This document shows positions 5,528 through 57,324 of a stretch of DNA of 64,000 nt, in pieces. The first letter of the stretch is position 1. Each line of letters begins with the position of its first letter. The translations under genes were made by a program, and so were the position numbers. The stretch covers positions 32,001-96,000 of the forward strand of contig OZ253580.1 in assembly GCA_965263035.1 (NCBI GenBank), read 5' to 3'. The DNA comes from Acidobacteriota bacterium. GTDB taxonomy: Bacteria > Acidobacteriota > UBA6911 > RPQK01 > JAJDTT01. The notes under the pieces were generated by a model. That model was not told where the DNA came from, did no database searches, and worked only from the letters and a program-made list of their open reading frames with translations.

Positions 5528-6157
5528 GTGCGCCCGACATGGGCTGTATCTAAGGGATGAAAGATCCCAAGGGAGGTGATGGGACCAACCCTAGCCGAAC
5601 CGCAAGGCGTAGCCGCGAGGTGAAGCTGAAGGAAGCGGAAGGCAAACCCACGACCGCAGGAACACGAACCGGCAGTGAGGCCGGGTGCGGGCGGTGAGCT
5701 GGCGAGCAACAGCGAAACCCGAACCCCATCCAGACGCATCAGGTAGAGCCGGGCGGCCCGGGGGGAAAGATGCAGCACCTTACTCGGGGAGATCTCAAGG
5801 GTGAGAGCCCTTGAGAAGTCAGCAGAGGTCGTAGTAGCGAAGAAGCTGGGTAATGCCGGTGGAGCGAAGGACCGAAGGAGTCGGACTGGCCCTATGGTGG
5901 ACTCGTCAGCGGGATCGCAACTACCTCCGAAAACGGGCCGTGGGGAGGCCCCTCGGACCCGGCATGGAAGGCCCACGGGTGGAGCCCGGCAAGCCGGAAG
6001 GGCGGAGATCAAGTCTCAGCGGCGGCGGAAACCGGAAAGAAAGGCCCTGTACGAGGCTCGAAAGAGCCTCGGGTGACTCCAACCGCCGGATACTGAAAAC
6101 GGTATGTCCGGTGGTGTGGGAGGGTGCAGGGGCGCAATCCCCTGCACTCGACCCGAT
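5528..6157 (+). ncRNA. group IIC intron ribozyme, ORF-less (630 nt)
   Basis: 5' GTGCGCCCG; short domain V with CGC triad (AACCGCCGGATACTGAAAACGGTATGTCCGGTGG); DVI ends CCCGAT; inserted right after a hairpin; no RT ORF. Confidence 0.9.
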
Positions 6158-9270: not shown

Positions 9271-10442
9271 ATGTCTAGTTACACCTCCAATTTCGCCGTC
9301 CGTCTATTCTACAGTTATAGCCACAAAGACAGTCATTTTCGCGACTCTATGGAAGACTCGCTTTCATTGCTCAAACAACGTGGATTGCTCGATGACTGGT
9401 CAGATGTAAAGATTTTACCCGGAGGAAAGATCTCGAAAACCAACAGGAAGAAGATGGATAACGCTGACATCATGGTGTTTCTTCTCAGCCGGAACTTCAT
9501 TGCTTCGACCGAGTGCATGAAGGAATGGGAGTACGCAAAGCGTCGTACTAATGAAAAAGTGCTCGTCCGCATTCCAATAATTCTATCCGATTGTGCGTGG
9601 CTAGATTTGCTTGGGAGCGACGACATCAAAGCATTGCCGCGAGATGGCAAACCTATCATGCGATTTGCCGATGACGGTGGCGCCTGGCAACAGGTATATG
9701 AGGGCATTAAAGTCGTTGTAGACAACTTACGAACAACTTTCACTCCAAAACAGGAATTCTTGGAGATAATGGAGAAAACCGATTTCTTGTCCGTACAACA
9801 CATTAGACTACAGGACATTTTTATATTTTTAAGATTGTCCTGTTACGCACCTCATGCAAGGGGGGAACATCCACCAAAAGAACAGGTTGACACCATAGAG
9901 GAGCTATTAAAGAATAAATATACGATAGTCCACGGTGACGAGATGAGTGGCAAGACAGCTCTCGGGCGCTTTCTGTTTCTTTCTCTGACAAAGGAGTTGG
10001 AACCTGTTCTGCATATAGATTTGCAACATCTTCCTAGACGTCCCCTTCGAGAAGAAACCTTTCGCCATACATATCACCGGCAGTTTAATGGCGATTATTC
10101 TCTCTGGAAGCGACAGCCTTCAAAAACCCTTATATTGGACAACTTGCAGCCAACTCCTCAATTAGTTAAATTTATTGTACTCTCCAAGGATTATTTCGAT
10201 AAAATAATAGTTACTTTATCGTCTGATATATTCAACTCGTTTTTCAGGGACGAAGAGCGTCTGGCCGAATTCTATGAAATGGAAATTGAACCGCTTACTC
10301 ACCGACAGCAAGAGACGTTGATTAGAAATAGACTCCGATTGTCGGATCGTAGCGAAACAATCACCGACGGCGTCGTCGATCAAATAGAAAACCGAGTGAA
10401 TTCCATAATCATTTCTAACAGGATCGTACCACGGTATCCATT
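9271..10442 (+). pseudogene. TIR-domain + P-loop (STAND-like) NTPase, 5' part; split by the IS1595 cargo element
   Basis: TIR motifs LFYSYSHKD and FIASTECMKE (catalytic Glu); Walker A HGDEMSGKT; frame joins 19074-20387 across the TSD (IVPRYP|FYVLSILQ). Confidence 0.88.
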
Positions 10443-10493
10443 GGGGACTACACAGATGTCTAGGCACGCCCAAATGCGCCAAATCAGAGACTA

Positions 10494-10710
10494 TCAATCT
10501 CGCACGAAAGTGCTAGAATAGGAAGAGGGGAGCACAACAACCAAGGGCCACACCATCACAACTGCAAGGCCATCAGTCATCTTAAGGCTCCCCTGCCCCA
10601 TTGCCTACCGAATCAGGTAGAATGGCGGGGAGGGGAGCATAAAAACCAAGGCCGACACTAACACAATTAGATCAGCGGCATCAGTCATCTTAAGGCTCCC
10701 CTCCATCATT
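10494..10710. other. two paralogous stem-closed cassettes: ncRNA (+) and/or 27-28 aa hydrophobic peptides (-)
   Basis: AGGGGAGC...GCTCCCCT closing stems, shared CATCAGTCATCTTAAG, TAGAAT upstream of each; minus-strand ORFs 10494-10580 and 10605-10688 both begin MTD. Confidence 0.55.
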
Positions 10711-10716
10711 TCATTA

Positions 10717-10907
10717 TACTGCTTGCCTGTAAGATCAGACCCACGAAAGTGCTAGAATGGGATGGAGGCGGGTTGCCCGACTTTGGATGATGGGGCCTGT
10801 TTCAGAAACAGGTTGGTCCTTATGGCCACGGAGGTTCGAGTCCTCCACCCGCCTCCATCAGGGTTATTGTACTGCTTGCCTGTAAGATCAGACCCACGAA
10901 AGTGCTA
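10717..10907 (+). repeat. 38-bp perfect direct repeat flanking a tRNA-like gene
   Basis: TACTGCTTGCCTGTAAGATCAGACCCACGAAAGTGCTA at 10717-10754 and 10870-10907. Confidence 0.9.
10767..10857 (+). tRNA. tRNA-like gene, anticodon CAG (Leu), Ser-type long variable arm, U73, encoded CCA
   Basis: Acceptor GGCGGGT/ACCCGCC; anticodon arm CCTGT-TTCAGAA-ACAGG; T arm GGAGG-TTCGAGT-CCTCC. Confidence 0.85.
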
Positions 10908-11159
10908 CAAGCCCTGTCGGTGAGACCTTTCTTTTGGAGTCAATGCCCATTCGACACCTCTCGGTTGATGGACTTTCCCTTGGTCCCTTAACAGTTTGAG
11001 TTGTCCTGTAGTAATTGCATTGAACCCCTGCTCTGGCAAACCGAGCTTTTCAGTAATTGGACTTAACGACAACCCCTCCTCGTATTTCTCCAATAGATTC
11101 AAGATTCCAGCTTGGATCAAGCGTTCTCCCATCTCTGCAAGCATTCTAGCCTCTGCCAT
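10905..11159 (-). CDS. small winged-helix-like protein
   Basis: AGGAGG RBS; ILNLL...GLSLSPITEKLGL...LKLLRDQGKV pattern typical of wHTH. Confidence 0.6.
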   Translation of the reverse strand: MAEARMLAEMGERLIQAGILNLLEKYEEGLSLSPITEKLGLPEQGFNAITTGQLKLLRDQGKVHQPRGVEWALTPKERSHRQGL

Positions 11160-11185
11160 CTGCTTCCTCCTAAGTAAAATACATC

Positions 11186-11485
11186 ATGGAACTAGGATTC
11201 ACACTTCCACCCACCCGACCCCGCCCAAAGATCCCTCTACAGCAAACGTGTAAGAGGTGTGGGCAACCAGACAAGTTCGACTTCCACGTACCAGATCATC
11301 TTTGGAAGTCTATAGTCCCAAAGTCCCATCGGAACCTTGCTATGTGTCTGTATTGCTTCGATGAGGAGGCCGCCGCTAAAGGTATTCCCTACGCGTGGGC
11401 CATCACTGAGTTTTGTTTTGCAGGCCGCGGAGCCACATTTGGCTTCACGGTGTCACGATACGTTGAAAAGAGGCAACTGATCTAG
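11186..11485 (+). CDS. small Zn-finger-like protein
   Basis: CKRC...CLYC pairs. Confidence 0.55.
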   Translation: MELGFTLPPTRPRPKIPLQQTCKRCGQPDKFDFHVPDHLWKSIVPKSHRNLAMCLYCFDEEAAAKGIPYAWAITEFCFAGRGATFGFTVSRYVEKRQLI

Positions 11486-11649
11486 TCGTCACAGTCGCCG
11501 TCCTTTTCTTTGGCCTGGCACTGATTGCAAAGTTCCCCGCTGGTCGGCTTCGCGTTCCTGCTAACGTAGTCGTCCGTTGGCCAGTTGGAACAGTTGCGGC
11601 AATAGTGCCACGTATCGCTCGTTCTTCGCTTTCGGTATTGTCTCGCCAT
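11482..11649 (-). CDS. small Cys/His-rich protein (55 aa)
   Basis: WHYCRNCSNWP...ELCNQC; AGGGGGTG RBS. Confidence 0.65.
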   Translation of the reverse strand: MARQYRKRRTSDTWHYCRNCSNWPTDDYVSRNAKPTSGELCNQCQAKEKDGDCDD

Positions 11650-11766
11650 GCTTTTCACCCCCTTTCTGGCTAGTCGTGATCCCATTAAGGAAGGAATCAG
11701 AGGAGCTTGATAAGAGACTTCAAATATAGCTTGAGTGCACGCCCAAATGCGCCAAATCGGATATTC

Positions 11767-11979
11767 TCAATCGTCAATCTGAGAGGCAGCGAACTCCAAG
11801 ACTCGGGCTAGTTCTCGGGCTTGGTTAGTACTCATATATGAGTAAACATTACCGTTTTCAATCCTCAGTTCCAGTGGGTAAGTCTCTTTGCAATCTTCCT
11901 CGTGAGGGTATCGAAGGCGAACTTCCCTGGTGGGGTACGCGCTCAATGTGATCTCAAATTCTTTCTTACTGTCTATCAT
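11767..11979 (-). CDS. hypothetical protein (70 aa)
   Basis: GGAGGAGAGG RBS; lies directly downstream of a 36-aa ORF at 11992-12102 (MAIVIIVLQHL...). Confidence 0.55.
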   Translation of the reverse strand: MIDSKKEFEITLSAYPTREVRLRYPHEEDCKETYPLELRIENGNVYSYMSTNQARELARVLEFAASQIDD

Positions 11980-12548
11980 GGTCCTCTCCTCCTATAGTCC
12001 CAACATTCGAGCAAACTGCTCCTTGGTCATGCCGTCATAAATGCTGCGTTTCGGCCTGAAGAAGTTATTTAGATGTTGCAGTACAATAATGACAATTGCC
12101 ATTGGTTTACATCTCCATAGTTATTTCATTGGCAACGGCCAGGGGGTTTGGGAGTTCTTCCCCCTGGCCACTAACCTTCCTCAGATATCATACCACAGAA
12201 TCAGGAAAAGGGAACGGCGGGGAAGAGCGGAGGAGTCTGACGGCTCCGAAGCGACACACTACGCATCAGATCCGACACCCGGCTTTCCAGTGTGTCACAG
12301 GCTCCCTTGCGTGCGTGAGCAAGTAGGCAAGGAGTTCATCCTCCGCTCCTCTGTCCTCTTATTGTACTCCGTGTGCAATACGTGGAGGATTTAGGAGGCG
12401 GCGCGGCTCCAACATGGAGCAAAGGGTTTTGTGTAGCCAGTTCAGTTAGGCAAAAACGCGCCGCCCTGGTAAATGCCTACCATGATATTCGATGGAGTGC
12501 AACCTGTGATCTGGATTTCTTGTCACAGGTGGTCTACGATGCGGTGGA

Positions 12549-12652
12549 GGAGGGGTGGCAGAATTGGCATTGCACTCGAATTTAAACTCGTAGGTCAGTA
12601 GGCGTTGCACCACAGCGCACCTGTACGGGTTCAAATCCCGTCCCCTCCTCCA
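12549..12652 (+). tRNA. aberrant tRNA-like gene (104 nt): 8-nt anticodon loop ATTTAAAC, very long variable arm, U73, CCA
   Basis: Acceptor GGAGGGG/CCCCTCC; D arm GCAGAATTGGCATTGC; T arm ACGGG-TTCAAAT-CCCGT; anticodon ambiguous (TTA counting from the 5' side). Confidence 0.65.
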
Positions 12653-12662
12653 TTGTGATGTC

Positions 12663-12751
12663 GGGAGCGTGGCCGAGTTGGATTATGGCGCCCGGCTGAA
12701 AACCGGGTGGGTGTAACAGCCCCGCAGGTTCGACACCTGCCGCTCCCGCCA
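12663..12751 (+). tRNA. tRNA with a Ser-type body (G73, long variable arm) and anticodon GAA (Phe), encoded CCA
   Basis: Acceptor GGGAGCG/CGCTCCC-G-CCA; anticodon arm CCCGG-CTGAAAA-CCGGG; T arm GCAGG-TTCGACA-CCTGC. Confidence 0.88.
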
Positions 12752-12773
12752 TCAATTCATAATACTCGGAGCA

Positions 12774-13223
12774 TCAAAAAAGCCTTTGACTTCGTTGGAG
12801 CAGGCCATCGAGTCTTCCTTTCGGAAGTTTTCCAACAGATTCCCAAATCGTCTCTCCAAAAACCGCCTCATACGATCCTGATTCGATGAACTCAGTAGCG
12901 TTTAGCGAGAGGATGACCCCAACACAGTCCGCCAGTATCAGTGCGGCCAGCGCCTCACGTCGGACCATCCCTCCAAAACCATTACGGGCACCAAAATCAA
13001 TTAGGACTAGTCGATACCCTTTAAGTTCAGGAGAGCTAGACGCGATCGTTTTTATTACTGTAGTGCTGTACACCTCCAGGCTGTTAGGGTCTGTCAACTT
13101 CTGTTGAATCTGCTCGTTTAGACCCGGAACACTGCCGTCTGAACTCATGCAATTAGACCCACTCGACGGCGTACAATTGGCGGTCAGAAGCACAAGAAGC
13201 AAAACGGTGCAGGAGTTTTCCAT
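12774..13223 (-). CDS. putative lipoprotein
   Basis: Hydrophobic signal ending LTANC; DFGARNGFGGMVR motif. Confidence 0.6.
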   Translation of the reverse strand: MENSCTVLLLVLLTANCTPSSGSNCMSSDGSVPGLNEQIQQKLTDPNSLEVYSTTVIKTIASSSPELKGYRLVLIDFGARNGFGGMVRREALAALILADCVGVILSLNATEFIESGSYEAVFGETIWESVGKLPKGRLDGLLQRSQRLF

Positions 13224-13254
13224 AACTCAATCTTTAATTAGAATAGATGTAGAC

Positions 13255-13343
13255 GGCGGGTTGCCCGACTTTTGGATGATGGGGCCTGTTTCAGAAACAG
13301 GTTGGTCCTTGTGGCCACGGAGGTTCGAGTCCTCCACCCGCCG
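13255..13343 (+). tRNA. tRNA-like gene, anticodon CAG (Leu), Ser-type variable arm, G73, no encoded CCA
   Basis: Near-identical copy of 10767-10857 with the discriminator changed to G; TAGAAT at 13239-13244. Confidence 0.83.
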
Positions 13344-13477
13344 CCCTTGCAATGAAGGAGGATGAGAACCGAAACCGTGCCTTCCCTAACTTCACACTGC
13401 CGACTAGAGCAGCTTAAAAGAAGGCGAGTAACGAACCGAAAAGCTCATCCTCCTCCATCAATTTATAATACTTTGAC

Positions 13478-14755
13478 CTAAAGTCCTGGCACAGAACTGC
13501 ACTTCGATGGAACGATCACAGGATCATCCGATTCCTCAGACTCTCGGTACCTAATAGACCCTCTTTGCGACCAGGGGAGGTTAGGCACATCGGGCAGTTC
13601 AATCTCTGTTCTAGTACCGCCTACGAATCCCTTATCTGGCACCAGTACCCATTCACCACGCCTGTACCAGATGTGAGATCGTGCCCAGACCCGCGAGTAC
13701 CTAATATCGATCGGATCATCTTCGGACATACGTCGGTGGAAAGCGCCGATGTTTGGATTAGGTTTAGAGCTACTAGAAAAGGAACTCGTCCAACTCAGCT
13801 TTCCAGAGAAATTCAACCTGGCCGTAGCGACACATCGACCTGGTCTTTCTTCAAATACCTGGTGGATCTGGTATCCTTGTGCAGTATCAGGCAACTCATA
13901 TCCGCCATCAGAGGTACGGGTTCTACCACCTCCTGCAGGAACCACTGACATCCCATTCTCCAGAGCAGGAGGGATCCCTTGGTAGTCAGCACGTGCTGCC
14001 TTCCCATAGATGCCTTCTATTGTGGTGTCAAAAGCTCCCTTTTCCCGTATTACAATGTCTCTCCAGTCACCAGGGGGACAGTCACCTTCCGTCACGTCTG
14101 GAGGGCCTTCATACAATCGCTCCCACTGTGCTTCATGCCACCGGGCGTTTCCATACTCCGGAGCAAAAGACTCAACTACCATCAAGGTGTAATCGAGCCC
14201 TGTCCCTGACTCTGGGTCGTCCACTTTGACAAGCCAACGCTTGAACTCATCTACAACTCGCCGATTCATGTCGGAGTAGCTTTTGACTCCGACAATGTGC
14301 CCACGGAAGTACTCGGTCCCAGAGAACGAATCAGAGAGAACACGTATACATTCCTCTGTCTTGAGGACTTCATGGGCATCTTGAATGGGCGCTTCGGTGA
14401 GCTCCACTGATTCGCACTCGAGTTCGTCTTTGAATCTAAAGGAGTCTGTTGGGTCCTTGTCTCCATAGATGAGTACAAGAGGGTCGGGAAGAGGAACGAC
14501 CATTGCAGCAAAGAACTTCCCTGACTCGTACTCTGTGACTCTCCACTCATAGATGTGACCACAATGGATCGCATCAAAAAATTCTAGGTTGATGATCTGA
14601 CCGTCGTGGGGAGGCTCTGAAAGACTCACCTCAACGCGACAATCTGGACAGGCGTTAGGGATAAATCCGTATGGAGTGTCGAATCCCCACTTCTCCTCGG
14701 CTTGTACATTCGCCAGGAATGCAGCAAAGGCCATTAGCACAATTACTTTTCTCAT
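13478..14755 (-). CDS. secreted acidic, Cys-containing hypothetical protein
   Basis: AAGGAGG RBS; signal peptide MRKVIVLMAFAAFLANVQA. Confidence 0.75.
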   Translation of the reverse strand: MRKVIVLMAFAAFLANVQAEEKWGFDTPYGFIPNACPDCRVEVSLSEPPHDGQIINLEFFDAIHCGHIYEWRVTEYESGKFFAAMVVPLPDPLVLIYGDKDPTDSFRFKDELECESVELTEAPIQDAHEVLKTEECIRVLSDSFSGTEYFRGHIVGVKSYSDMNRRVVDEFKRWLVKVDDPESGTGLDYTLMVVESFAPEYGNARWHEAQWERLYEGPPDVTEGDCPPGDWRDIVIREKGAFDTTIEGIYGKAARADYQGIPPALENGMSVVPAGGGRTRTSDGGYELPDTAQGYQIHQVFEERPGRCVATARLNFSGKLSWTSSFSSSSKPNPNIGAFHRRMSEDDPIDIRYSRVWARSHIWYRRGEWVLVPDKGFVGGTRTEIELPDVPNLPWSQRGSIRYRESEESDDPVIVPSKCSSVPGL

Positions 14756-14783
14756 AGCGTACCTCCTTACTCTGTATTCAGAT

Positions 14784-15128
14784 TCAGAATCCCAATGCCT
14801 TGCGGGCGAACTTCTGGATCTGTTTCCACATAATGACCTGATCGAAGTGATGGTCAACGCCGTAATGGTCAGTGTGCGTTATACCATCCTTCAAAATCTC
14901 GCCTGCAATGGGGAGCACGGAGTCGGGAGTCCACCGAGTCAGAACGTCCGAAGGATCGTCCGTCCGGCACAGGTACATCTGTGCTGTAATAACGATCATG
15001 TAGTCGCCTGTGTCGGACGGAATCACGAACAGTGCGTTTGGAGGAGTCTCCACCTCCGTGTTCCAAGGGTGTCCCACACCAAACGCGACGGATAGAATTG
15101 TGATAGCGATTAGCAATGTGTTTCTCAT
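14784..15128 (-). CDS. secreted hypothetical protein (114 aa)
   Basis: AAGGAGG RBS; signal peptide; likely co-transcribed with 13478-14755. Confidence 0.7.
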   Translation of the reverse strand: MRNTLLIAITILSVAFGVGHPWNTEVETPPNALFVIPSDTGDYMIVITAQMYLCRTDDPSDVLTRWTPDSVLPIAGEILKDGITHTDHYGVDHHFDQVIMWKQIQKFARKALGF

Positions 15129-15349
15129 AATGCCTCCTTCTCGTACCTTGTGTACGACTTGTTGATTTATGACATCGGTGACCGACGCATTTAGTACACT
15201 ATTATATCACATTATAATAGATGCACAAAGCAAGACGACCAAGGAATTAAGGAAGTATTCGGAAGGGGCGGGACAATAACAAACCGCCCCTTCGAACATC
15301 GCTCCGGGGTCGGGTGAAAGTAGTAAAGCCCTCCCCCATGTGGGAGCGA

Positions 15350-15586
15350 TTACCGGGGTGGCCGAATCAAAGCTACACCTTCATCGTCGTACTGTCCGAC
15401 CCAATTATCGTGGGACAGACGATGTCGGGCGTGCGATCTCAACTGTGCCCGAGTTGCCGGGAGGAGCAGACCCATGAGGCGCGTCTGATCCTGAGCGAGG
15501 GGCAACAACGCTTCCCAGGTAATGCCTCCTGGCGCAGTCATCAAGTGATCGAGGTATCCGGCGTAGGTGCTGAAATTGCGGGGCAT
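15350..15586 (-). CDS. hypothetical protein (78 aa)
   Basis: AGGAGG RBS; preceded by a long structured leader. Confidence 0.5.
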   Translation of the reverse strand: MPRNFSTYAGYLDHLMTAPGGITWEALLPLAQDQTRLMGLLLPATRAQLRSHARHRLSHDNWVGQYDDEGVALIRPPR

Positions 15587-15991
15587 CGCGGGTCCCTCCT
15601 GGGGGAGGGTCCCGTATCAGAGGCGTAGCAAGCTGACAACGTATCGGGTAAACTGTCTGACAGGCTGACTTTCCTCCAACACAGGACCAGTTGGCTCAGA
15701 GTCCGTTGGGTGCTGATATCACCTGACGGACTCACCTTTTCAGAGTACTCGGCCTAGCTACAAGGAGCACTCGTTCCCTTGTAAGGGAGCCGGGTCTGAG
15801 TGCTCATCGAACAGCGATGCTGATGGAAGAGTTGCTTATTCACCCGGCGCGGTTCATGAGGCCACGCTTTACCAGGTTGTTTTATTCAGCAAGAGACCCG
15901 ACACAAGCGAATCACTGCCGAGAGCACTGAGGCGGGATTGTGCCGGATAAATAATTGGTAGTCAATAGAAGGGAGAAAATTATCTCAACTC

Positions 15992-16219
15992 TCAGCGGAG
16001 GGTGTCCACCACGGCATTCCGTACCGATTCCATCCAGGTCTCAATCTCCCGCTGGTGTTGGACCAGGGCCTTTACCTTGTCGTCCACAATCCGCAGCCGT
16101 CGGATAATGAGCAGGTGAGAGACGATGATGAGGAATAGGACCAGGAGCAAGGCGAAGGCGTACCAGTGTTGATCGACGATGGGAGGGATTCGGGAGAGTA
16201 ATGAGTTGAGCTGTTCCAT
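15992..16219 (-). CDS. small single-TM membrane protein
   Basis: One hydrophobic helix YAFALLLVLFLIIVSHLLII followed by a coiled-coil-like tail. Confidence 0.6.
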   Translation of the reverse strand: MEQLNSLLSRIPPIVDQHWYAFALLLVLFLIIVSHLLIIRRLRIVDDKVKALVQHQREIETWMESVRNAVVDTLR

Positions 16220-16272
16220 GCTTCAATCTTCCTGCTTTGCCGAAGTATAATACATACATGGCGGAGGGTTGA

Positions 16273-16348
16273 TGGACGCAGCGGGCTTCGGACCCGCGTC
16301 TCCCGGTTTTCAGCCGGGTGTGTTATCCGGGATAAACACTATGCGCCC
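16273..16348 (-). tRNA. tRNA with Ala identity elements (G3:U70, A73) and anticodon GAA (Phe)
   Basis: On the minus strand: acceptor GGGCGCA/TGCGTCC-A; anticodon arm CCCGG-CTGAAAA-CCGGG; T arm GCGGG-TCCGAAG-CCCGC. Confidence 0.82.
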
Positions 16349-16475
16349 TCGGTTTGCTTTTCCCTCCGCCATTCTAAACATCTTGCCAAGGTCAGGGGTC
16401 TTTGGTATTTTGGCCTCTCTCGCGCATGATTGTAGGCAATCAATATTATGTGTTATCATGTGTTCTTCAATGATG

Positions 16476-16551
16476 TGGAGCCGGTGCCAGGAATCGAACC
16501 TGGACACGAGGACTTGCTGGGCCCCGGCGTTTGCCATTCCGCCACACCGGC
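16476..16551 (-). tRNA. tRNA-like gene, anticodon AGC (Ala), no G3:U70, U73, CCA
   Basis: Acceptor GCCGGTG/CACCGGC-T-CCA; loop CCAGCAA; T arm CCAGG-TTCGATT-CCTGG. Confidence 0.8.
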
Positions 16552-16575
16552 TCCCTTCATTATAGACCGTCAGAG

Positions 16576-16651
16576 GGGAGCCGGTGCCAGGAATTGAACC
16601 TGGAAACAAGGAATTGCGAGTCCCCGACCTTGGCCACTCAGTCACACCGGC
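16576..16651 (-). tRNA. tRNA-like gene, anticodon CGC (Ala), no G3:U70, U73
   Basis: Second unit of a 100-bp tandem repeat; loop CTCGCAA; 3' end TCCC. Confidence 0.8.
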
Positions 16652-16675
16652 TCCCTTCATTATAGACCGTCAGAA

Positions 16676-16751
16676 GGGAGCCGGTGCCAGGAATCGAACC
16701 TGGAAACAAGGAATTGCCACTCCCCGACCTTGGCCACTCGGCCACACCGGC
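16676..16751 (-). tRNA. tRNA-like gene, anticodon GGC (Ala), no G3:U70, U73
   Basis: Third unit of the 100-bp tandem repeat; loop GTGGCAA; 3' end TCCC. Confidence 0.8.
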
Positions 16752-16871
16752 TCCCTTCATTTTAGCACAGGGGGACTATCGTGAAAAAACGACCTCGCAA
16801 GCCCGTGGACATCCTAGCCCTGGCAATGCGCCGGGCTTATGAGCAAACTAGGGGCGGAGAAGCCGAATCCC

Positions 16872-17843
16872 TCAATGAAGATCGTCCGCCTTGTCGGAAA
16901 CCAGATCGAGATACAGCAGACGACGACCGACCATCCCCGCCACGATGTGCTTCATCTGGTCAATAGTATCCAGTTCCCGGATGTTGTGACGCTTGACAAA
17001 CTCGTTGACGTAGCGGTGCAGGTGCTTCACGCTCAAGCTGTGGAACGTCCCCATGTAGCCCCGCTTCAACATCGACCAGAAGGATTCGATGCCATTTGTG
17101 TGTACTATGCCGTCAACGTACTGTTGAGCGCTGTGTCTCACAGACTTGCGATTTGAGCCCATCCAGGCGTAAGCCTGATTCTCGTCCGTGTACGACTTCA
17201 CTCCGAAAGTGGAGCTGTCCAAAATGAACCGGGCAAGAGTCTCCTTTGTCGTGTCCGGCACCACCCTGGCCCTGATTTGATTCGTAGGCCGGTCCTTCAT
17301 GCCTACCACTGCGGTCTTGCCTGAGGGTCCACGACCGGAAAACATCGCCCGTCGCTTCTTGCTCATGTTCCTCCGCTTGCCTCCCATATAAGTCTCGTCG
17401 ATTTCCACGGGACCGATCAGAGCTTCCAAATCGTCCTTGTCCAAGGACTCGCGGAGTCGGTGCAACATGAACCACGCCGTATTCTGCGTCACGTCGATGT
17501 CTCGATGGAGTTTCATCGAGGAGACTCCCTTGAGGTTCGTGACGTAGATGAAAATGGCGTAGGCCCATTTTCGGAGCGGAACCTTGGATCTTGTCAAGGC
17601 CGTGCCAGTGCGGACGCTGAAATACCTACGGCAGTCCGAACACCAGTACGGCTGCGGATATCGGTTTGGCGTCTCATTCGTCTTGACGCTGCCGCAATGA
17701 CCACAGCACCGTTCCTCGGGCCAGAGAACATCCTCAAACCATTTCGTCGCGGCTTCCTCCGTGGGGAACATCTCCGCGAGTTGGATCATTGAGATCCCTT
17801 GTCGGTAGAACTTTCCGGGGGCTTTCCCCTTGCACTTGTCCAT
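16872..17843 (-). CDS. IS1595-family (ISXO2-like) transposase, intact
   Basis: Zn ribbon CGHCGS/CSDC, AWFMLHRLR, VEIDETY, YTDE, HTNGIESFWS, YVNEF. Confidence 0.93.
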   Translation of the reverse strand: MDKCKGKAPGKFYRQGISMIQLAEMFPTEEAATKWFEDVLWPEERCCGHCGSVKTNETPNRYPQPYWCSDCRRYFSVRTGTALTRSKVPLRKWAYAIFIYVTNLKGVSSMKLHRDIDVTQNTAWFMLHRLRESLDKDDLEALIGPVEIDETYMGGKRRNMSKKRRAMFSGRGPSGKTAVVGMKDRPTNQIRARVVPDTTKETLARFILDSSTFGVKSYTDENQAYAWMGSNRKSVRHSAQQYVDGIVHTNGIESFWSMLKRGYMGTFHSLSVKHLHRYVNEFVKRHNIRELDTIDQMKHIVAGMVGRRLLYLDLVSDKADDLH

Positions 17844-18079
17844 GGTGGGCCTTTCGTGGTAGGATTCTCGGGACGCGGCTGAACCGAGGAACCCACGGCC
17901 TGGCAACCTCCGTTTGTAAGTGAGAGACCAGAGCGCAGGACCTGCTTCGAAACCGCGTCCAATTCAATTATATCACACCTTTATAGATGGTGTTTTTATC
18001 AGCCTTACTCTCCTTTAATTCCCTGTAATTATGCCATCGGACCCTGACATTTTTCTGTCATAAATCCTTTGTTTAGTTT

Positions 18080-18438
18080 AAGGTTACGAAGATTTAATTG
18101 ACCTTTTGTGTGATTGTGTGGTAAAATTATTGGGTTAATGTGAACAGGAGGCATGATGACTAAGAAGGAACTCAACGGATTCACAGAGGCAGTTCGAACG
18201 GTTGTCCGAGAGGAATTAAAGCCGATTGAGCAGCGTCTCGACAAACGCCTTGACGACTTGAAGAAGGAAATCCCTGGTCTAGTTGCGGACGTGATCGCAC
18301 AACGATTTCCAACCCTGTTCCCACACTCATAGGCTGCCAGATCAATTAGGAGGAAGGTTACGAAGATTTAATTGACCTTTTGTGTGATTGTGTGGTAAAA
18401 TTATTGGGTTAATGTGAACAGGAGGCATGATGACTAAG
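18080..18438 (+). promoter_or_regulatory. duplicated 85-bp promoter+RBS+start block
   Basis: Identical at 18080-18164 and 18354-18438: TTGACC-N18-TAAAAT with extended TG, AGGAGG, ATGATGACTAAG. Confidence 0.8.
18153..18332 (+). CDS. small coiled-coil protein (59 aa, MMTKKELNGFTEAVR...)
   Basis: Hand-translated; strong promoter and RBS; N-terminus paralogous to 18427-18705. Confidence 0.7.
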   Translation: MMTKKELNGFTEAVRTVVREELKPIEQRLDKRLDDLKKEIPGLVADVIAQRFPTLFPHS

Positions 18439-18705
18439 GAAGAACTCAACGGTTATGTCAACGCCGTCAGGCTCGTGGTCCAGGAGGAACTTGAGCCCGT
18501 CAAATCTCAGATTACAACCCTGACTCTTCGAATGGGAGATGTGGAACTGAGGTTGGGAGAGGTTGAAGCCAGAATGGGCACGTTGGAGTCTCGCATGGGA
18601 ACGGTCGAGGCCAGAATGGGGACATTGACTCAGAGAATGGGTGATGTTGAGACTAAGGTAGGGGCGTTGACTCAGAGAATGGGTGATGTTGAAGCCAAAT
18701 TGTAG
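18427..18705 (+). CDS. heptad-repeat coiled-coil protein (92 aa)
   Basis: 7-aa repeats such as RMGDVEL, RLGEVEA, RMGTLES. Confidence 0.75.
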   Translation: MMTKEELNGYVNAVRLVVQEELEPVKSQITTLTLRMGDVELRLGEVEARMGTLESRMGTVEARMGTLTQRMGDVETKVGALTQRMGDVEAKL

Positions 18706-19073
18706 GATGGGGTGATGGAGGAGAACGACTAGACGTAGTTGTAGGGGTAGGTGACTACTGCCCCTCCGGGGGGAGCGATGGAGTTAGTCAAACTACCACT
18801 CCCTCTGTCCCCTCCATCATTTAATTATACTCCCCACGAAAGTGTAGAATGGGATGATGGAGGAGGGAAACCAATCCTGCCGTCCCATGTATTAACACCA
18901 CAATCGGCAGGGCTACCGTTGAGGCACACCCCAAGGCGGTAGGCTGCTCAGCGATAGTGTGTCTTCCACTGGGTCCAGCCATCGCCCTCCTCCATCATGT
19001 GATTGTACTCCCCACGAATGTAAGGCCCAGTTCAATGACCCTGGAGGCGTGCCTAGACATCTGTGTAAGCCCC

Positions 19074-20387
19074 TATCCATTCTACGTACTCTCAATACTC
19101 CAAACCTACGAGGCCTTTATGCCTAGTGAGCTCTCTATTACTTCCTACGGTCACTGTTACTATGTCCTTATTATTGCCAACTTAGTTAAGGCAGGCATAC
19201 CTCGTAGCGACGATCAACTAAATACATGTTTTTACTTTGCAGAACGCTTAGCATTTGAAATTTATCGGATTGCAAGGAAATCCAACTCGGGGTCGTTGGA
19301 TTTTGACAAGTTTGTGGCGGACTACAGAAATCAATATATAATTTCGCGATCGGTCCTGAGTAGGTTGATGCATCCCGATTTTGGAATCATCAATACAGAA
19401 GGTCAATTCAAAACAGCGTACATGTACTACTTCTTTCTGGGCAGGTTCCTCTCGAAGAACCGCAGCACACACATATCCATAATTGAGAATATGTGTGAAA
19501 ATAGCCACGTGACTTCGAACCACCTGACGCTTCTTTTCGTTATTCATCATACTGATGATAGACAAATAATTGATGACATATTGCTTAGGACAATGTGCAC
19601 ACTGGACACTGTGCAACCCGCGGTTCTAGATCGAACGGAAACTCGGAGATTCAAGGATATCATTGCCGGGCTCCCCACAAATATACTCTCCAATGATAGT
19701 GTGGTGAAGGAAAGGAAAAGACAGAGGGATGGTCGCGACTTGACCGAGAAGCAAGACGGGTACGATGGTGATACGGATGGCATCGATCAACAAAGCCTGG
19801 TTAACGACATTTACAAAATCTTTAAAAATAACGAGATTATGGGGCAAATTCTACGAACCAAATACGGAACGTTAAAAAAAGAGACGATTGTGGAAATCAT
19901 CGAGACGATTGCGGACAGTGGGCTACGCCTTGTCAACTTTGTCCTCAAGGATGAAAAGGAAATAGCCGATACCGCCCACTACCTTCATGCGAAATATCCG
20001 AAGGATGATATAAAGAAGATAAAAAACTATCTTCAATTCTTTTCTTTTTTCTGGACGATAGTAAATGTTGAAAAAGTTGCTAGAGCCATAAATGTTCCAG
20101 AGATTATTGAAACGGTCGATTCAGTCGTTACGCGGAAGGGGTCGCCGGCGTACGATCTTATTGGATACTTCAGCCTGCTCGACAGTTCTCCGGAAATCTC
20201 AAGGAAAGTTAATAAACGACTAGGATACCTATTGAACACTCACAAGGACCTGTTTGTTAAGTGGGTGTTGTCAATTAGAACGCAATACTATATGAATACC
20301 CACGATAGTGGGGCATCGATGGAGCAATCGGTCTGTTCGTTGTTAGATATCAAGTATTCCTCAGCCCATCGTTCCTTACGACGGTAA
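19074..20387 (+). pseudogene. TIR-NTPase gene, 3' part (reconstituted protein about 825 aa)
   Basis: In frame with 9271-10442 once the element and one TSD copy are removed; same low-GC codon style. Confidence 0.88.
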
Positions 20388-20599: not shown

Positions 20600-22337
20600 C
20601 CCAGATTATTCATGGAACATGTTGATAAGAGCTTCCAACCCGGCGTTTTCGTGCGATCGGAGCCCGGTTTCTCTTGAACCTCTGTCGATTCGACTGAATC
20701 GGCTCGAAAACAGGACGATTGAACCAGTCATTAACCGTTTACCGGCCAGGGGGACCGTCACCCGCCGACAGGTTGACTTTCCGGTGAGAAATCCCCACCG
20801 TTTCGGTCCCTTCCACGGGCCCGTTTTCTCCTCCGTCCACTATCCCGGCGCCCAGGACACCCGCGCCAGTCTCTGCCACAACCGCTTCCAGTCCGTCGCC
20901 CCTTGACTGATGACGAAAATCAATCGCCTCCCCTGACGCAGCGCCCGACTCGCCACTCGCAACACCCGCTCGCGAAAACGACGCAGACTCCAGCCCCGAC
21001 GCGTCGCCTGCTCCATCAGCACCCGACCCAGGTGCAGGATCTCGTACCCCAGCAGATTCAGCAGGAACCGGACTTCGTTGTGGGGTCGAACGCCGGCCTC
21101 CGTCCTCGCTTCCGGCTTGGCTTCCGACTTCAGCGGTTGGCCCCGATAGTGCGTCTTGGGCCGGCTCGCGGAGGACAAGGCCGGATCGAGCACGTCCATG
21201 AACTCCCCCATGTGGCCTTCCGCCTTCCCCCGCTTTCGATACTGTGCCAGCAACTCCTGAGCCTCGTATCGTTTCCGGCTCAGGCTCGTCAGCAACCAGA
21301 AATGATCCGGATACAACTCCCCCGGTCGCTCCCGCACCACCAGCACCACCCGGAGCGTCAACTTCAGCGCCTTTTTCCCCAGGTAGCTGGCTCCCGGAAA
21401 AATCTCCCCGTCGATCAGGTCCCCCGTCTCGGCACAACTCGCCACCAACCCGTGGTACATCCGCTGGCGATAGTATCCGTTCCATTCGCTTCCCGGGGGA
21501 TGCCCATGGACCTCGACCGGGAGACCGTCCACGTCCAGGTACATCGTCTTTTTCCGTCTCTTCTTCCGTGGGGTCTTTTTCCCCCGTTTTCGCCGCTGGC
21601 CTTCGATCATCTCGATCCGACGGCACGCCAGCTCCGTCACCGCCTGGTGCAGGACCGGAAGGTTCTCCTCCCGGCTGAGCGTGTCCAGCAGTCGGGACAA
21701 GGTCGGCTGCGACGCCAGCCCCTGGCCCTCCTCCAAGGCCGCCGTGCCCCGACGAGTCCGGCTCGCCACCCGCAAGCTCGGATCCTGACGCAGGCGGTCG
21801 GCGTCGGACTGGTCGCGCCAGCCCTGACCCAGCAGCAGGAGTCGAGTCCGCAGCAGATCCGACAGCGGATAGCGGATCGAACTCGGGTGTCGCGGATCGT
21901 GCAACCGCCCGGTCAACCAGTCGATGAGGCCGCTGCGATCCATCAGCTCCCGCTGCACCAGGGCTCCCGTGTCCGCACTGAGCAACTCGGGGCGGGTCTC
22001 GAGGCGGAGGGATCGGTTGAATGAGGGCCGGATCTGCGGTATCGTCTCAGGCATGGCGTGCTCCGTTCTTTGTGGTTGTTTCTTAGCACTATAATCATAC
22101 CACAAATGACGGGCACGCCGTCTCTTTATGCCGCCCTTGGAGGGGACGAAAACCGTGGAAATGCTTGGGTTTCGGCCCCCCTTGAATCCTGGGGTTAAAC
22201 CGACGTTGAAAACAAATATAGCGTTTCACCCAGGTCGGATCCCATCCGTTTTCTGTGGGTATCCGGTAACCCTCTGATCCGACTCGACATGACGGGCACG
22301 CTTGCTCATTTTATGTTTGCGTGATGAATAATCTGGG
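20600..22337 (-). mobile_element. IS1380-family element; transposase (20840-22054) appears internally deleted
   Basis: TIR CCCAGATTATTCAT / ATGAATAATCTGGG; LASQPTLSR, YLDVD and YRKRGKAE motifs present, central catalytic segment missing. Confidence 0.8.
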
Positions 22338-56694: not shown

Positions 56695-57324
56695 GTGCGC
56701 CCGACATGGGCTGTATCTAAGGGATGAAAGATCCCAAGGGAGGTGATGGGACCAACCCTAGCCGAACCGCAAGGCGTAGCCGCGAGGTGAAGCTGAAGGA
56801 AGCGGAAGGCAAACCCACGACCGCAGGAACACGAACCGGCAGTGAGGCCGGGTGCGGGCGGTGATCTGGCGAGCAACAGCGAAACCCGAACCCCATCCAG
56901 ACGTACCAGGTAGAGCCGGGCAGCCCGGGGGGAAAGATGCAGCACCTTACTCGGGGAGATCTCAAGGGTGAGAGCCTTTGAGAAGTCAGCAGAGGTCATA
57001 GTAGCGAAGAAGCCGGATAATGCCGGTGGAGCGAAGGACCGAAGGAGTCGGACTGGCCCTATGGTGGACTCGTCAGCGGGATCGCAACTACCTCCGGAAA
57101 CGGGGCGGGGGGAGGCCCCTCGGACCCGGCACGGAAGGCCCAAGGGTGGAACCCGTCAAGCCGGAAGGGCGGAGATCAAGTCCCAGCGGCGGCGAAAACC
57201 GGAAAGAAAGGCCCTTTACGAGGCTCGAAAGAGCCTCGAGTGACTCCAACCGCCGGATACTGAAAACGGTACGTCCGGTGGTGTGGGAGGGTGCAGGGGC
57301 GCAATCCCCTGCACTCGACCCGAT
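56695..57324 (+). ncRNA. group IIC intron ribozyme, ORF-less (630 nt), second copy
   Basis: Near-identical to 5528-6157; inserted after the CGGCGGCAAGAAAGCCGCCG hairpin. Confidence 0.9.

Follow-up and report, generated by a model that had tools for sequence, protein, structure and literature searches.

A cargo transposon of the IS1595 family in an acidobacterium carries tRNA-like genes with apparently mismatched anticodons and other stem-closed RNA cassettes

Positions 10443 to 19073 of a 64,000-nt stretch of an Acidobacteriota genome (GCA_965263035.1, contig OZ253580.1; the whole stretch is hereafter the window) were found to be a one-copy, 8.6-kb cargo transposon of the IS1595 family. It is non-composite, its cargo consists mainly of small RNA genes, and it landed in a TIR/STAND defence-type gene. 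The window transposon is a member of an acidobacterial IS1595 family, 1.85 to 8.6 kb in size, with tRNA-like passengers. In these passengers, the anticodon appears to sit on a body whose acceptor, discriminator, and variable arm bear the features of a different amino acid and are Ser-like, Ala-type (G3:U70), or Leu-like.

Structure and origin of the transposon

The following features delimit the element or belong to its backbone.

10435 to 10442: left TSD copy, 8 bp, TATCCATT, identical to 19074-19081
10443 to 10470, + strand: left TIR, 26/28 match to the right end
11737 to 11772, + strand: internal copy (89%; repeat search) of the left-end subterminal part (10464-10499)
15648 to 15740: conserved motif with a hairpin, also found elsewhere in the genome and in relatives
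16872 to 17906, - strand: intact IS1595-family DDE transposase, 344 aa, PF12762 (DDE_Tnp_IS1595), 1.8e-34
19046 to 19073, - strand: right TIR
19074 to 19081: right TSD copy, same 8 bp as the left copy

An 8.6-kb IS1595 element with 26/28 TIRs, an 8-bp TSD, and an intact transposase had been proposed in the preliminary description, and this was borne out by the alignment of the ends, the PF12762 match, and an excision test. In silico deletion of the element and one TSD copy yielded a 2478-nt ORF without an internal stop; the restored 826-codon gene is the defence-type gene mentioned above, and the surroundings are a region of mobile-element and defence genes. The Zn-ribbon of the transposase (PF12760) scored 23.3 bits, slightly below the cut-off of 25.4, and the protein is 78% identical to the transposase of a sister element, L011. 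The element is foreign and present in a single copy; its GC content is 0.52 vs 0.62 for the genome, and no paralogues of its cargo were found elsewhere in the genome. The 89% internal copy suggests that the leftmost 1.3 kb came in through recombination.

tRNA-like genes and their anticodons

The eight tRNA-like genes described earlier were confirmed, all of them (39.4-52.9 bits) exceeding the Rfam gathering score of 29 in a permissive Infernal run; six were detected with default Infernal filters and six with ARAGORN.

10767 to 10857, + strand: W1, class II, anticodon CAG, U73, encoded CCA (ARAGORN; Rfam 44.4 bits)
12549 to 12652, + strand: W2, 104 nt, U73-CCA, acceptor and T arms intact, anticodon region irregular (Rfam 39.4 bits)
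12663 to 12751, + strand: W3, class II, G73, anticodon GAA (Phe) (52.9 bits; ARAGORN)
13255 to 13345, + strand: W4, 97% copy of W1, CAG, G73, without encoded CCA (ARAGORN, Rfam)
16273 to 16348, - strand: W5, class I, G3:U70, A73, anticodon GAA (Rfam 50.6 bits)
16476 to 16752, - strand: W8/W7/W6, class I, anticodons AGC, CGC, and GGC, C3:G70, U73, three tandem 100-bp units

A TATAAT or TAAAAT box lies 4 nt ahead of each of W8/W7/W6, and W4 is preceded by TAGAAT and a -35-like hexamer. The full cloverleaf and core nucleotides are retained, and in the Rfam alignment non-canonical pairs were flagged in W2 and absent from the other seven genes.

Identity was compared with the anticodon by means of identity rules and the nearest host tRNAs. 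On this basis the earlier claim that no tRNA pairs its body with a cognate anticodon was supported for the seven assessable genes of the window (0/7), and likewise for all loci (18 tRNA-likes, 16 assessable, none with a cognate combination by identity rules). All five members with G3:U70 carry non-Ala anticodons (GAA, UAG, UUG, GAG, and CAG), and the three genes with Ala anticodons (NGC) have C3:G70 and U73 without G3:U70. The nearest host tRNAs of W3 are two tRNA-Ser (identity 0.73), and that of two A73 genes with anticodon AGA in the sister element L071 is tRNA-Leu (0.75). Four body types (W3, W5, L011b, and the G296 copy) carry the GAA anticodon, and the anticodon arms of W3 and W5 are identical over 17 nt.

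Sister elements and covariation

Related tRNA-likes were found in five other Acidobacteriota genomes, in two other loci and in four more delimited IS1595 elements; these four all have 8-bp TSDs and tRNA-like cargo.

L011 element: 4.8 kb
L071 element: 7.5 kb
G296 element: 3.4 kb
G300 element: 1.85 kb

The other loci are an undelimited one in G250 and one in G148 with two family members. In G300, the flank motif adjoins a second transposase copy. The copy in G296 belongs with W6-8 to a U73 class I family.

In the G3:U70 family (four sequences from three genomes), 97.7% of 88 cells were paired, 10/22 pairs were compensatory, a value matched by 0/500 shuffles, and G3:U70 itself was kept in 4/4 aligned members. 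Between W5 and the G250 copy, 22/22 pairs were kept, eight of them through compensatory changes; for W6-8, 98.6% of cells were paired, with three compensatory pairs. Because the cloverleaf is kept through compensatory pairs and G3:U70 is retained, always with non-Ala anticodons, the tRNA-likes are selected RNAs and not decaying copies. Cloverleaf decay without covariation in sister elements, which the preliminary description had named as an outcome that would speak against it, was not what these alignments showed.

Other RNA cassettes and shared ends

At least seven other stem-closed cassettes (A, B, E, F, J, S, and T) were identified, in agreement with the earlier estimate of about seven, in addition to an outer clamp around W5 (K). 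Their z-scores of minimum free energy were calculated with our own script (100 dinucleotide shuffles per cassette unit).

10521 to 10600, + strand: A, about 70-nt stem-closed RNA, A/B family; z -1.4; TAGAAT at 10514, 7 nt before
10626 to 10712, + strand: B, A/B family, ends U-CCA-UCA; z -4.4; TAGAAT upstream
12215 to 12362, + strand: E, 148-nt stem-closed multi-hairpin RNA, followed by ATTGTACT; z -2.9
12388 to 12472, + strand: F, stem-closed RNA, 9-bp clamp; z -4.4
13349 to 13461, + strand: J, ends U-CCA-UCA, followed by ATAATACT; z -4.9
16258 to 16372, - strand: K, outer clamp enclosing W5, 11-bp closing stem; z -4.6; TAGAAT upstream, ATTATACT downstream
18711 to 18820, + strand: S, four-way-junction RNA, ends U-CCA-UCA; z -5.6; TAGGAT upstream
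18851 to 18999, + strand: T, four-way-junction RNA, 12-bp clamp, ends U-CCA-UCA; z -4.6; TAGAAT upstream

Among the 12 folded cassette units, nine reached z <= -4, and A, E, and W4 (-1.8) were weaker. The A/B alignment comprises two copies from the window element and two from L071. The J family has five copies in two genomes with compensatory pairs at 7/21, and its covariance model recovered only these five across 15 family genomes.

The cassettes share a common plan, in which a -10-like box and a short leader of GAUGG type precede a closing stem, and N73-CCA-UCA and then an A/T-rich ATWRTACT box come after it. The N73-CCA-UCA end, mostly with U73, is also present on 5/7 non-tRNA cassettes and on the W5 outer clamp. 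In the 6.2-Mb genome, 6/7 matches of the 3' flank motif, 5/7 of the 5' flank motif, and 8/11 of the motif "-10 box + GATGG" fall inside the element. The stem-closed cassettes with -10-like boxes of the preliminary description were confirmed, and the plan extends to the sister elements.

Relation to irregular acidobacterial tRNAs

The earlier statement that no equivalent had been described was wrong. The available portion of Mukai et al. 2017 (PMC5389517) reports acidobacterial tRNAs that combine Ser or Ala identity with a non-cognate anticodon. It also describes missense-suppressor and irregular tRNAs lying close to transposon genes and toxin-antitoxin genes, irregular tRNAs arranged in polycistrons, and a pseudogene of an allo-tRNA that overlaps an ORF related to transposons. 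In E. coli, tRNAs of the Ser or Ala kind placed these amino acids at Leu and stop codons (PMC5389517, PMC7609411), a precedent for suppression, and induction led to cell death (PMC5389517). Some irregular tRNAs were not charged by E. coli enzymes and not used in translation, others were charged but non-decoding, and regulatory or toxin-antitoxin-linked roles were weighed (PMC5389517). Relative to what that portion of the paper covers, the new features are a delimited transposon family, canonical 7/5 geometry, two unlisted RNA families, and the ends common to the cassettes (-10-like box, GAUGG...CCAUCA).

Possible functions

The preliminary description had offered mistranslation, tRNA decoys, or RNA-toxin addiction as functions, and each of the three may still apply. 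Judged from sequence, the transposon may be a mobile mistranslation module whose tRNA-likes act as low-level missense suppressors, a reading to which we assign somewhat less than an even chance. Each cassette would have a -10 box of its own to drive transcription, and the tRNA-processing enzymes of the host would trim the transcripts. Host synthetases blind to the anticodon would charge at least the tRNA-likes of Ala, Ser, and Leu type, and Ala would be inserted at Phe, Leu, or Gln codons, Ser at Phe or Leu codons, and Leu at Ser codons. The non-tRNA cassettes would be expressed and processed in the same way but serve other RNA functions. If true, mistranslation would be mobile and built in, which is a testable idea. 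Processing looks feasible because host tRNAs also show pairing of the leader with N73-CC over 3 nt (9-10/52) and encoded CCA (34/52). Mistranslation cannot explain the whole module, because the 5/7 non-tRNA cassettes ending in N73-CCA-UCA cannot decode. The window anticodons read the most used codons of the host (CTG 42.1, GCC 40.9, and TTC 26.8 per thousand; crude frames), so that suppression, if efficient, would be very toxic. Non-canonical anticodon arms also speak against suppression, namely the irregular W2, C33 in W8 and the G250 copy, a 6-nt loop in L011a, and stem mismatches in the L071 GCC gene. Leader-CCA pairing reaches 6 bp in the element (the W1 leader with U73-CCAUC) vs at most 4 in host tRNAs, and could block charging.

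Several of these features would suit non-decoding mimics, that is, tRNA- and acceptor-end-shaped RNAs that bind or titrate tRNA-recognising proteins off the ribosome, an explanation we consider rather unlikely. Their targets would be anticodon nucleases, acceptor-end toxins (defence/toxin-antitoxin), modification enzymes, or synthetases, and the host or the element might be protected or something regulated; both suppositions are similarly doubtful. The shared GAA arm on the unrelated W3 and W5 bodies, the recurrence of GAA on four body types, anticodons that mimic those of the most used host tRNAs, non-canonical loops, the sealed CCA, and the location among mobile-element and defence genes all fit, as do the charged non-decoding species and the roles considered in the available part of Mukai et al. 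(PMC5389517). The stem-N73-CCA-UCA ends of non-tRNA cassettes and of the W5 clamp mean that an acceptor end is presented even without a tRNA body. Strict conservation of G3:U70 amid 10 compensatory changes, however, points to AlaRS over anticodon mimicry alone; W6-8 vary chiefly at position 34 (G, C, and A), like isoacceptors, a decoy needs no body of different identity, and searches of the elements turned up no nuclease, toxin, or defence family in any of them.

It is improbable that the structures instead serve the transposon as processing, punctuation, or regulatory signals with irrelevant anticodons, and equally so that they control expression of transposase and cargo genes. As such, they might act as sites for RNase P, RNase III, or RNase E, or as pairs of sense and antisense promoters. 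The minimal G300 element retains a single tRNA-like, 28 nt past the transposase stop codon, and in the window, L011, and L071 the array directly follows the transposase gene on its 3' side. Furthermore, a single motif (-10-like box, 4 nt, TGATGG) recurs in inverted copies at the cassette ends; of its eight matches within the element, six point inward from the 3' side, fitting antisense promoters or long processing stems. Intrinsic terminators are scarce (3 vs 7.5 +/- 2.5 expected). Nevertheless, orientation to the transposase varies (the two converge in G300 but run in the same direction in the window and L071), no IS1595 transposase was found in the 20 kb fetched around both G148 members, and most examined IS1595 loci have no tRNA-like (in the phylum sample with 1.5-kb flanks, tRNA hits at 3/29, one of them cargo-like). 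Punctuation would keep neither G3:U70, U33/R37 loops, and D-/T-loop tertiary nucleotides nor one anticodon on several bodies. Least credible, and disfavoured, is decay, in which the tRNA-likes would be hitch-hiking pseudogenes derived from tRNAs captured from a host or a phage, with mismatches due to drift. Rfam scores of 39-55 bits vs up to 78 bits for housekeeping tRNAs in G428, mispairs or odd loops in W2, L011a, the L071 GCC gene, and the G300 copy, and the pseudogene in the accessible text of Mukai et al. (PMC5389517) would agree with decay, but compensatory evolution between genomes in which hardly any pair is broken, the seven window genes free of non-canonical pairs, -10 boxes at a fixed distance, and cassette end motifs conserved between families of the phylum argue against it.

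Putative protein-coding cargo

The preliminary description listed about a dozen small or secreted ORFs. Eleven plausible non-transposase ORFs were retained, and homologues in sister elements were found only for those at 13478-14755 and 15350-15586.

10905 to 11159, - strand: 84-aa putative ORF without family match
11186 to 11485, + strand: 99-aa Cys-rich ORF, weak DUF6300 match below cut-off
11482 to 11685, - strand: 67-aa Cys-rich ORF
11767 to 11979, - strand: 70-aa ORF without family match
12774 to 13223, - strand: 149-aa Cys-containing ORF, N-terminus hydrophobic, without family match
13478 to 14755, - strand: 425-aa secreted-type orphan protein
14784 to 15128, - strand: 114-aa ORF, N-terminus signal-peptide-like
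15350 to 15586, - strand: 78-aa ORF, L011 homologue (35% identity, 2e-11)
15992 to 16219, - strand: 75-aa ORF, one transmembrane-like segment, related DNA in genome G088
18080 to 18705, + strand: two paralogous coiled-coil ORFs, 59 and 92 aa

The 425-aa protein, which matched nothing in Pfam, PADLOC, or PHROG, is a passenger common to three elements, with homologues in L011 (36%) and L071 (30%); 13 relatives were found in 5.8 billion proteins and 17 in 1.84 billion representatives. By eye, four ORFs have an N-terminal hydrophobic or transmembrane segment. The 59- and 92-aa ORFs are each preceded by a duplicated 99-nt promoter region (TTGACC-18-TAAAAT).

Delimitation of the transposon and its insertion site

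The element spans 10443-19073 and has a GC content of 52%, in a 6.2-Mb genome assembled as a single contig with 62% GC, of which the window covers 32001-96000. The preliminary description had proposed an IS1595 element with 26/28 matching terminal inverted repeats (TIRs), an 8-bp target-site duplication (TSD) and an intact transposase, which was confirmed by the following features and by the frame restored on excision:

TIRs: 28 nt, inverted, 26/28 matching
TSD: 8 bp, TATCCATT on both flanks
16872-17906, (-) strand: intact IS1595/ISXO2-type DDE transposase (PF12762, 1.8e-34; score 119 bits, cut-off 27)

For an N-terminal transposase zinc-ribbon (PF12760), the score of 23.3 bits (6.4e-5) was slightly under the cut-off of 25.4. 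Removal of the element and one TSD copy joined 9271-10442 to 19082-20387 in a single 826-codon frame with no stop, indicating that the insertion is real, complete and inactivating for a defence-type gene. The N-terminal part of the split gene contains a TIR protein domain (PF13676, 1.9e-12; PADLOC ThsB-type, 1.7e-29), and both halves matched the candidate defence protein PDC-S60. As read from the sequence, the transposon knocked out a candidate defence gene. The interrupted gene is of the TIR-domain/STAND NTPase type, with a ThsB-like TIR domain, a PDC-S60-like C-terminal part and a GC content (~45%) that is itself low.

The element was identical in six DNA datasets from three studies, and neither a variant nor an empty site was present among their contigs examined. 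The host genome contains 17 other IS1595 matches, the best being 52% identical to the element transposase, and no paralogues of the cargo were found elsewhere in it apart from one 67-nt motif.

RNA cargo and cassette ends

All eight of the proposed tRNA-like genes (W1-W8) exceeded the Rfam RF00005 gathering threshold in Infernal (39.4-52.9 bits against 29), and ARAGORN detected six. On the same scale, the housekeeping tRNAs of the congener G428 score up to 78 bits and the tRNA-like genes of its own elements 44-55. Seven of the eight genes had no non-canonical pair in the Rfam alignment; the anticodon region of W2 (12549-12652) is irregular. About seven other stem-closed cassettes had also been predicted, and seven were counted (A, B, E, F, J, S, and T), in addition to an outer clamp around W5; the Rfam search of J, A/B, S, and T gave no match. 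Upon folding, 9 of 12 cassette units had z <= -4 (100 dinucleotide shuffles), with weaker values for A, E, and W4.

The cassettes have common ends. They are preceded by a -10-like hexamer, mostly TAGAAT (9 copies in the element, compared with 3.6 +/- 1.9 for shuffled sequence), and the clamp, often GAUGG(A)GG, begins 4-10 nt after it. The 3' arm ends in N73-CCA-UCA in W1, W3, the W5 clamp and five of the seven non-tRNA cassettes, and an ATWRTACT box lies 3-6 nt beyond the arm. Genome-wide, 6/7 and 5/7 matches of two flank motifs were located inside the element, as were 8 of 11 matches of the combined -10 box and GATGG; six of these eight point inward from the 3' side. A search of the order (76 genomes) gave 21 occurrences of the 3' motif and 2 of its reversed control. 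A generic sigma-70 scan detected 13 promoter-like sites (6.9 +/- 2.6 expected) and three terminator-like sites (7.5 +/- 2.5 expected). The earlier term promoter-flanked is thus reasonable, although unproven. Convergent promoters or extended processing stems would account for the inverted ends equally well. In type I/III RNA toxin-antitoxin systems, a toxic product is countered by an antisense or repeat RNA encoded in cis; the sole hint of such sense/antisense pairing here comes from -10-like boxes that point inward from both cassette ends.

The cassette 3' box (ATTATACTG...) and its spacing of 4 nt before TGATGG (window 10700-10760 and 18811-18863) are similar to the outer TIR found in related IS1595 elements, for example GGGGATTATATACTG-AATT-TGATAG in the L071 element of G428, and to the ends of locus L089. 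The cassette ends may be derived from, or mimic, transposon ends.

Body identity and anticodon

The discriminator base is A73 in tRNA-Leu, G73 in tRNA-Ser and U73 in tRNA-Cys or tRNA-Gly, and the tRNAs of the host agree with these rules. Identities were called from such rules and the nearest host tRNAs only, for all genes except W2. The G3:U70 pair is described as the recognition mark of AlaRS, and SerRS as ignoring the anticodon, in a review (PMC7609411). W3 is a Ser-like class II body (G73; nearest host genes two tRNA-Ser, 0.73) with a GAA anticodon, and W5 combines GAA with G3:U70 and A73; the 17-nt anticodon arm is identical in the two (repeat I6). The three tandem genes W6, W7, and W8 have anticodons GGC, CGC, and AGC, yet carry C3:G70 and U73, and the host tRNAs closest to them are those for Cys, Phe, and Lys (~0.68). 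W1 and W4 are class II with a CAG anticodon and have U73 and G73, respectively, against A73 in all host tRNA-Leu genes.

When the genes of all loci were pooled, 16 of 18 could be assessed and 0/16 were cognate by the rules applied here. We infer that the anticodons of the tRNA-like genes are mismatched to the identity of their bodies. The earlier statement that no gene combines a normal body with its cognate anticodon thus held for the assessable genes, by identity rules and nearest host tRNAs only.

Several odd ARAGORN calls in the host (Phe of 95 nt, Ser GGA twice, Gln of 79 nt, and one undetermined) were rejected as coding or repeat sequence. Four other calls, annotated as tRNA-Leu(UAA) in G000, the genome of the window (C1 2101850, 2914932, 5348837, and 5672126), start with C1:G72 and have a common upstream stretch of ~45 nt, and two of them are identical including the flanks. 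These look like a repeated tRNA-like element and not like housekeeping tRNAs.

Related elements

The preliminary description had suggested collecting sister elements and comparing their cargo. Four more delimited IS1595 elements that carry tRNA-like genes were obtained, all with 8-bp TSDs:

Related IS1595 elements with tRNA-like cargo
L011 (also represented as a locus of G428, which is assigned to the genus of the window genome): 4,799 bp, TIR 26/28, TSD ATTCAATT
L071 (second element in G428): 7,465 bp, TIR 23/28, TSD AATCGGAA
G296 (genome of another family): 3,444 bp, TIR 24/26, TSD TTTGTGGG
G300: 1,853 bp, TIR 26/26, TSD AATCGAAG

The L011 transposase is the closest to that of the element (78% identity), and L011 carries two tRNA-like genes, an Arg-like one whose loop has 6 nt and a class II one with A73 and GAA (L011b), as well as a clamp cassette and homologues of the 425-aa and 78-aa ORFs of the element. 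In L071, two class II A73 genes with anticodon AGA, whose nearest host tRNA is Leu (0.75), lie downstream of the transposase gene; the element also has an Arg-like gene with GCC, two A/B-family RNAs and the 425-aa passenger protein. The G296 element contains a clamp-closed U73 gene with GAA, whose D-loop is like that of W6-W8; this copy of the U73 family aligned badly. The G300 element consists of the transposase and a single tRNA-like gene (G3:U70, A73, anticodon UUG) with the same 3' flank, and the flank motif also adjoins a second transposase copy on another contig.

An undelimited locus in G250, from another genus of the family, encodes a transposase of 57% identity, four J-family RNAs and a clamp-closed G3:U70/A73 gene with anticodon UAG. 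The covariance model of the G3:U70 family retrieved two further members from 137 genomes of the class, both in G148, where their anticodons are GAG and CAG. The 20 kb retrieved around them lacked an IS1595 transposase, and the neighbourhood contained only an IS4-type transposase and orphan ORFs. In the FastTree phylogeny of 42 transposases (midpoint root, topology only), the window, L011, and G250 formed one clade and the other cargo-bearing elements were dispersed. Most IS1595 loci have no tRNA-like gene: among 29 loci of the phylum sample (1.5-kb flanks), tRNA matches occurred in three and represented cargo in only one. The tRNA of L027 (an ordinary host tRNA-Leu), the two tRNA-Ser genes of L016 (outside that IS) and the matches of L040 (which look like host genes) were rejected as cargo. 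A metagenome scan with the transposase yielded only six distant loci (<=41% identity).

Selection on the RNAs

In the G3:U70 family (four sequences from three genomes), 97.7% of 88 cells were paired and compensatory double changes occurred in 10 of 22 pairs; none of 500 shuffles was as good, and 31-44% of cells were paired in slid controls. G3:U70 is present in 4/4 sequences, which have four different anticodons, none for Ala. Between W5 and the G250 copy alone, 22/22 pairs were kept, eight of them with compensatory changes. The tandem genes W6-W8 had 98.6% of cells paired and three compensatory pairs, with weak statistics (40/500 shuffles). In the J family, 7 of 21 pairs showed compensatory changes and unpaired motifs were conserved too; its model found only the five known copies in 15 genomes of the family. 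Decay of the cloverleafs without covariation, which the preliminary description had named as evidence against its interpretation, was thus tested and random decay was rejected.

Comparison with known systems

IS1595 insertion sequences with passenger genes (ISfinder subgroups) have a DDE transposase with an N-terminal Zn-ribbon, TIRs, an 8-bp TSD and passengers downstream of the transposase gene. The element resembles them in transposase type, TIRs, TSD length and passenger placement, and to our knowledge the known passengers are protein genes. Phage, plasmid and mobile-element tRNA arrays are likewise horizontally moved clusters, but their tRNAs are cognate and serve to supplement codon usage or to stand in for host tRNAs that have been cleaved, whereas no assessable gene here was cognate by the rules applied. 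In tmRNA and other Ala-charged tRNA mimics, AlaRS accepts a non-standard RNA by virtue of its G3:U70 acceptor stem; the G3:U70 family differs in that its anticodon arm is complete, with a loop of 7 nt, and that an mRNA-like domain is absent.

The claim that no equivalent had been described did not hold, owing to overlap with the allo-tRNAs and 'polycistrons of irregular tRNAs' of the same phylum (Mukai et al. 2017, NAR, PMC5389517; review PMC7609411) and, in concept, with tRNAProX/ProRSx. The former include tRNAs that join Ser or Ala (G3:U70) identity elements to non-cognate anticodons, and also irregular tRNAs in tandem, among them U73 species with no assigned identity. A link to toxin-antitoxin loci and a transposon-related ORF was noted for them, and a role as missense suppressors and/or regulatory RNAs was suggested. 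Here, Ser or Ala identity with other anticodons is seen in the Ser-like W3 and in W5 and four relatives with G3:U70. In contrast, allo-tRNAs are characterized there by an 8/4 or 9/3 acceptor/T arrangement (12-bp branch) and a tRNASec-like D-arm, whereas Infernal and ARAGORN assigned canonical 7-bp acceptor and 5-bp T stems to W1 and W3-W8, with an ARAGORN alternative of 8/5 through an A-1:U73 pair for W6 and W7. L011b scored best on the tRNA-Sec model but under its cut-off (35.8 against 47 bits). By predicted structure, the genes are not allo-tRNAs in the defining geometry of that family, and they have no dedicated synthetase, no synthetase domain having been found in the searched ORFs of the window, L011, and L071. 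In that paper no mobile element is delimited, whereas a complete IS1595 family with TIRs and TSDs is present here, along with -10 boxes per cassette, GAUGG/CCAUCA clamps and non-tRNA RNA families.

The tRNAProX/ProRSx pairs of Streptomyces and Kitasatospora (Schuntermann et al. 2023, PMC10404621) are also natural bacterial tRNAs with a foreign anticodon on a body of other identity, which mistranslate sense codons and are toxic yet conditionally useful. However, they have a Pro-type body, usually beside a dedicated chromosomal synthetase isoform, whereas no synthetase was encoded in the element ORFs searched, host tRNA-Pro was not the first nearest neighbour of any element gene, the element identities are those of anticodon-blind synthetases, and the genes ride a transposon.

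In full-text literature searches on IS1595 tRNA passengers, transposon-borne missense suppressors and acidobacterial allo-tRNAs, with subscription-only papers and supplements outside their scope, no such report was found; the papers listed for IS1595 did not concern tRNA cargo, as judged by titles and abstract openings. The new findings are the delimited IS1595 carrier family, whose cargo ranges from a single tRNA-like gene to eight such genes with seven other RNAs; the cassette ends that are held in common; a recurrent G3:U70 family that has non-Ala anticodons and shows covariation; two RNA families that are unlisted; and an orphan passenger with predicted secretion.

Possible function and significance

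The best-supported reading, though a tentative one, is that each cassette would be a separate transcription unit matured by the host tRNA machinery, and that the Ala-, Ser-, and Leu-type members would serve as missense suppressors after charging by synthetases that are blind to the anticodon. In the host, the 3-nt leader pairs with N73-CC in 9-10 of 52 tRNAs, and CCA is encoded in 34/52. Missense suppression by acidobacterial allo-tRNAs in E. coli has been demonstrated experimentally (Mukai et al., PMC5389517; PMC7609411). Several points speak against this reading. The main rival, somewhat less probable, that the RNAs are non-decoding tRNA mimics or decoys, is favored by the same CCA-ended clamps on RNAs incapable of decoding, by the non-canonical anticodon loops of some genes, by the long leader-CCA pairing, and by predicted toxicity: the commonest host codons in crude long frames are CTG, GCC, and GGC (ranks 1-3), and as the element anticodons read the commonest codons, suppression would be strongly toxic.

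The minimal G300 element points to a service role for the transposon, an improbable reading that would leave the conserved identity elements unexplained. A broader and rather unlikely version of the missense-suppressor reading is that an acidobacterial IS1595 lineage spreads anticodon-swapped tRNA cassettes in ready-to-express form, whose Ala-, Ser-, and Leu-accepting bodies would read Phe, Leu, Gln, Ser, and Ala codons, giving mobile, copy-number-tunable mistranslation of sense codons. The inverted ends (-10 box and GAUGG) would then yield a convergent antisense transcript per cassette, as a built-in RNA antidote or switch, and further small RNAs with tRNA ends would be exported from this platform.

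Missense-suppressor tRNAs are rare in nature, and why acidobacterial genomes have many irregular tRNAs has been an open question since 2017. What had been missing is supplied by the locus and its relatives: complete delimited mobile carriers, cassettes built on one conserved plan that includes candidate promoters and ends, RNA families that combine clear compensatory changes with an unvarying AlaRS determinant, and a minimal 1.85-kb element open to direct testing. If the RNAs decode, code ambiguity could be acquired by transposition, which bears on genetic-code evolution, stress adaptation and orthogonal tRNA design; if they do not, they would be mobile tRNA mimics of a new class, with a probable link to conflicts over tRNA.

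Passenger protein and other features

13478-14755, (-) strand: 425-aa secreted-type orphan passenger, common to the element, L011, and L071

No match to the passenger was found in Pfam, PADLOC, or PHROG, no usable one in the ESM Atlas, and none by Foldseek at E <= 0.001 with its AF2 model (pLDDT 82), for which the best VIA Z of 4.7 was at a merely generic beta-sandwich level. The family occurs in 2 of 137 genomes of the class and in 1 of 401 of the phylum sample (G000 itself), and a viral-contig scan with its alignment found nothing. A 'genetic lock', in which the element genes would need the suppressors, was rejected since these genes are not recoded: at columns conserved in >=90% of 41 relatives the transposase has five differences, all conservative, and at conserved columns the passenger has none.

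The neighbourhood is a mobile-element and defence-gene region (window 20840-22105, 26374-32355, and 34245-36596) that encodes a DDE_Tnp_1_4 transposase, a STAND-type ATPase of 1993 aa and a fusion of a DruA-like domain with a Tn5-type transposase. At 1455-2483 there is an IS3-type integrase, and group II intron D1-D4 matches at 5609-5872 and 56776-57039 (RF02001, RF01998) indicate two intron copies within the window. At least nine near-identical IS1595 copies in G000, 52% identical to the element transposase, have one in-frame TGA inside the transposase match (C1 1740368-1741309, 5327455-5328396, and 4172777-4173718, for example) and other copies have TAA; this pattern could reflect programmed read-through, or the family may be non-autonomous and mobilized in trans.

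The stretches 15284-15354 and 15995-16120 are adjacent in G088, so the intervening 640 bp looks like a later insertion within the cargo. It includes the 78-aa ORF and a motif of ~65 nt with a covarying hairpin (15648-15740), which had no Rfam match and occurs at two more places in G000 and also in G148, G170, G200, G414, and G429. At 18080-18705, two small coiled-coil ORFs each follow a duplicated 99-nt predicted promoter region, and the longer one has 14-residue repeats (42-nt period).
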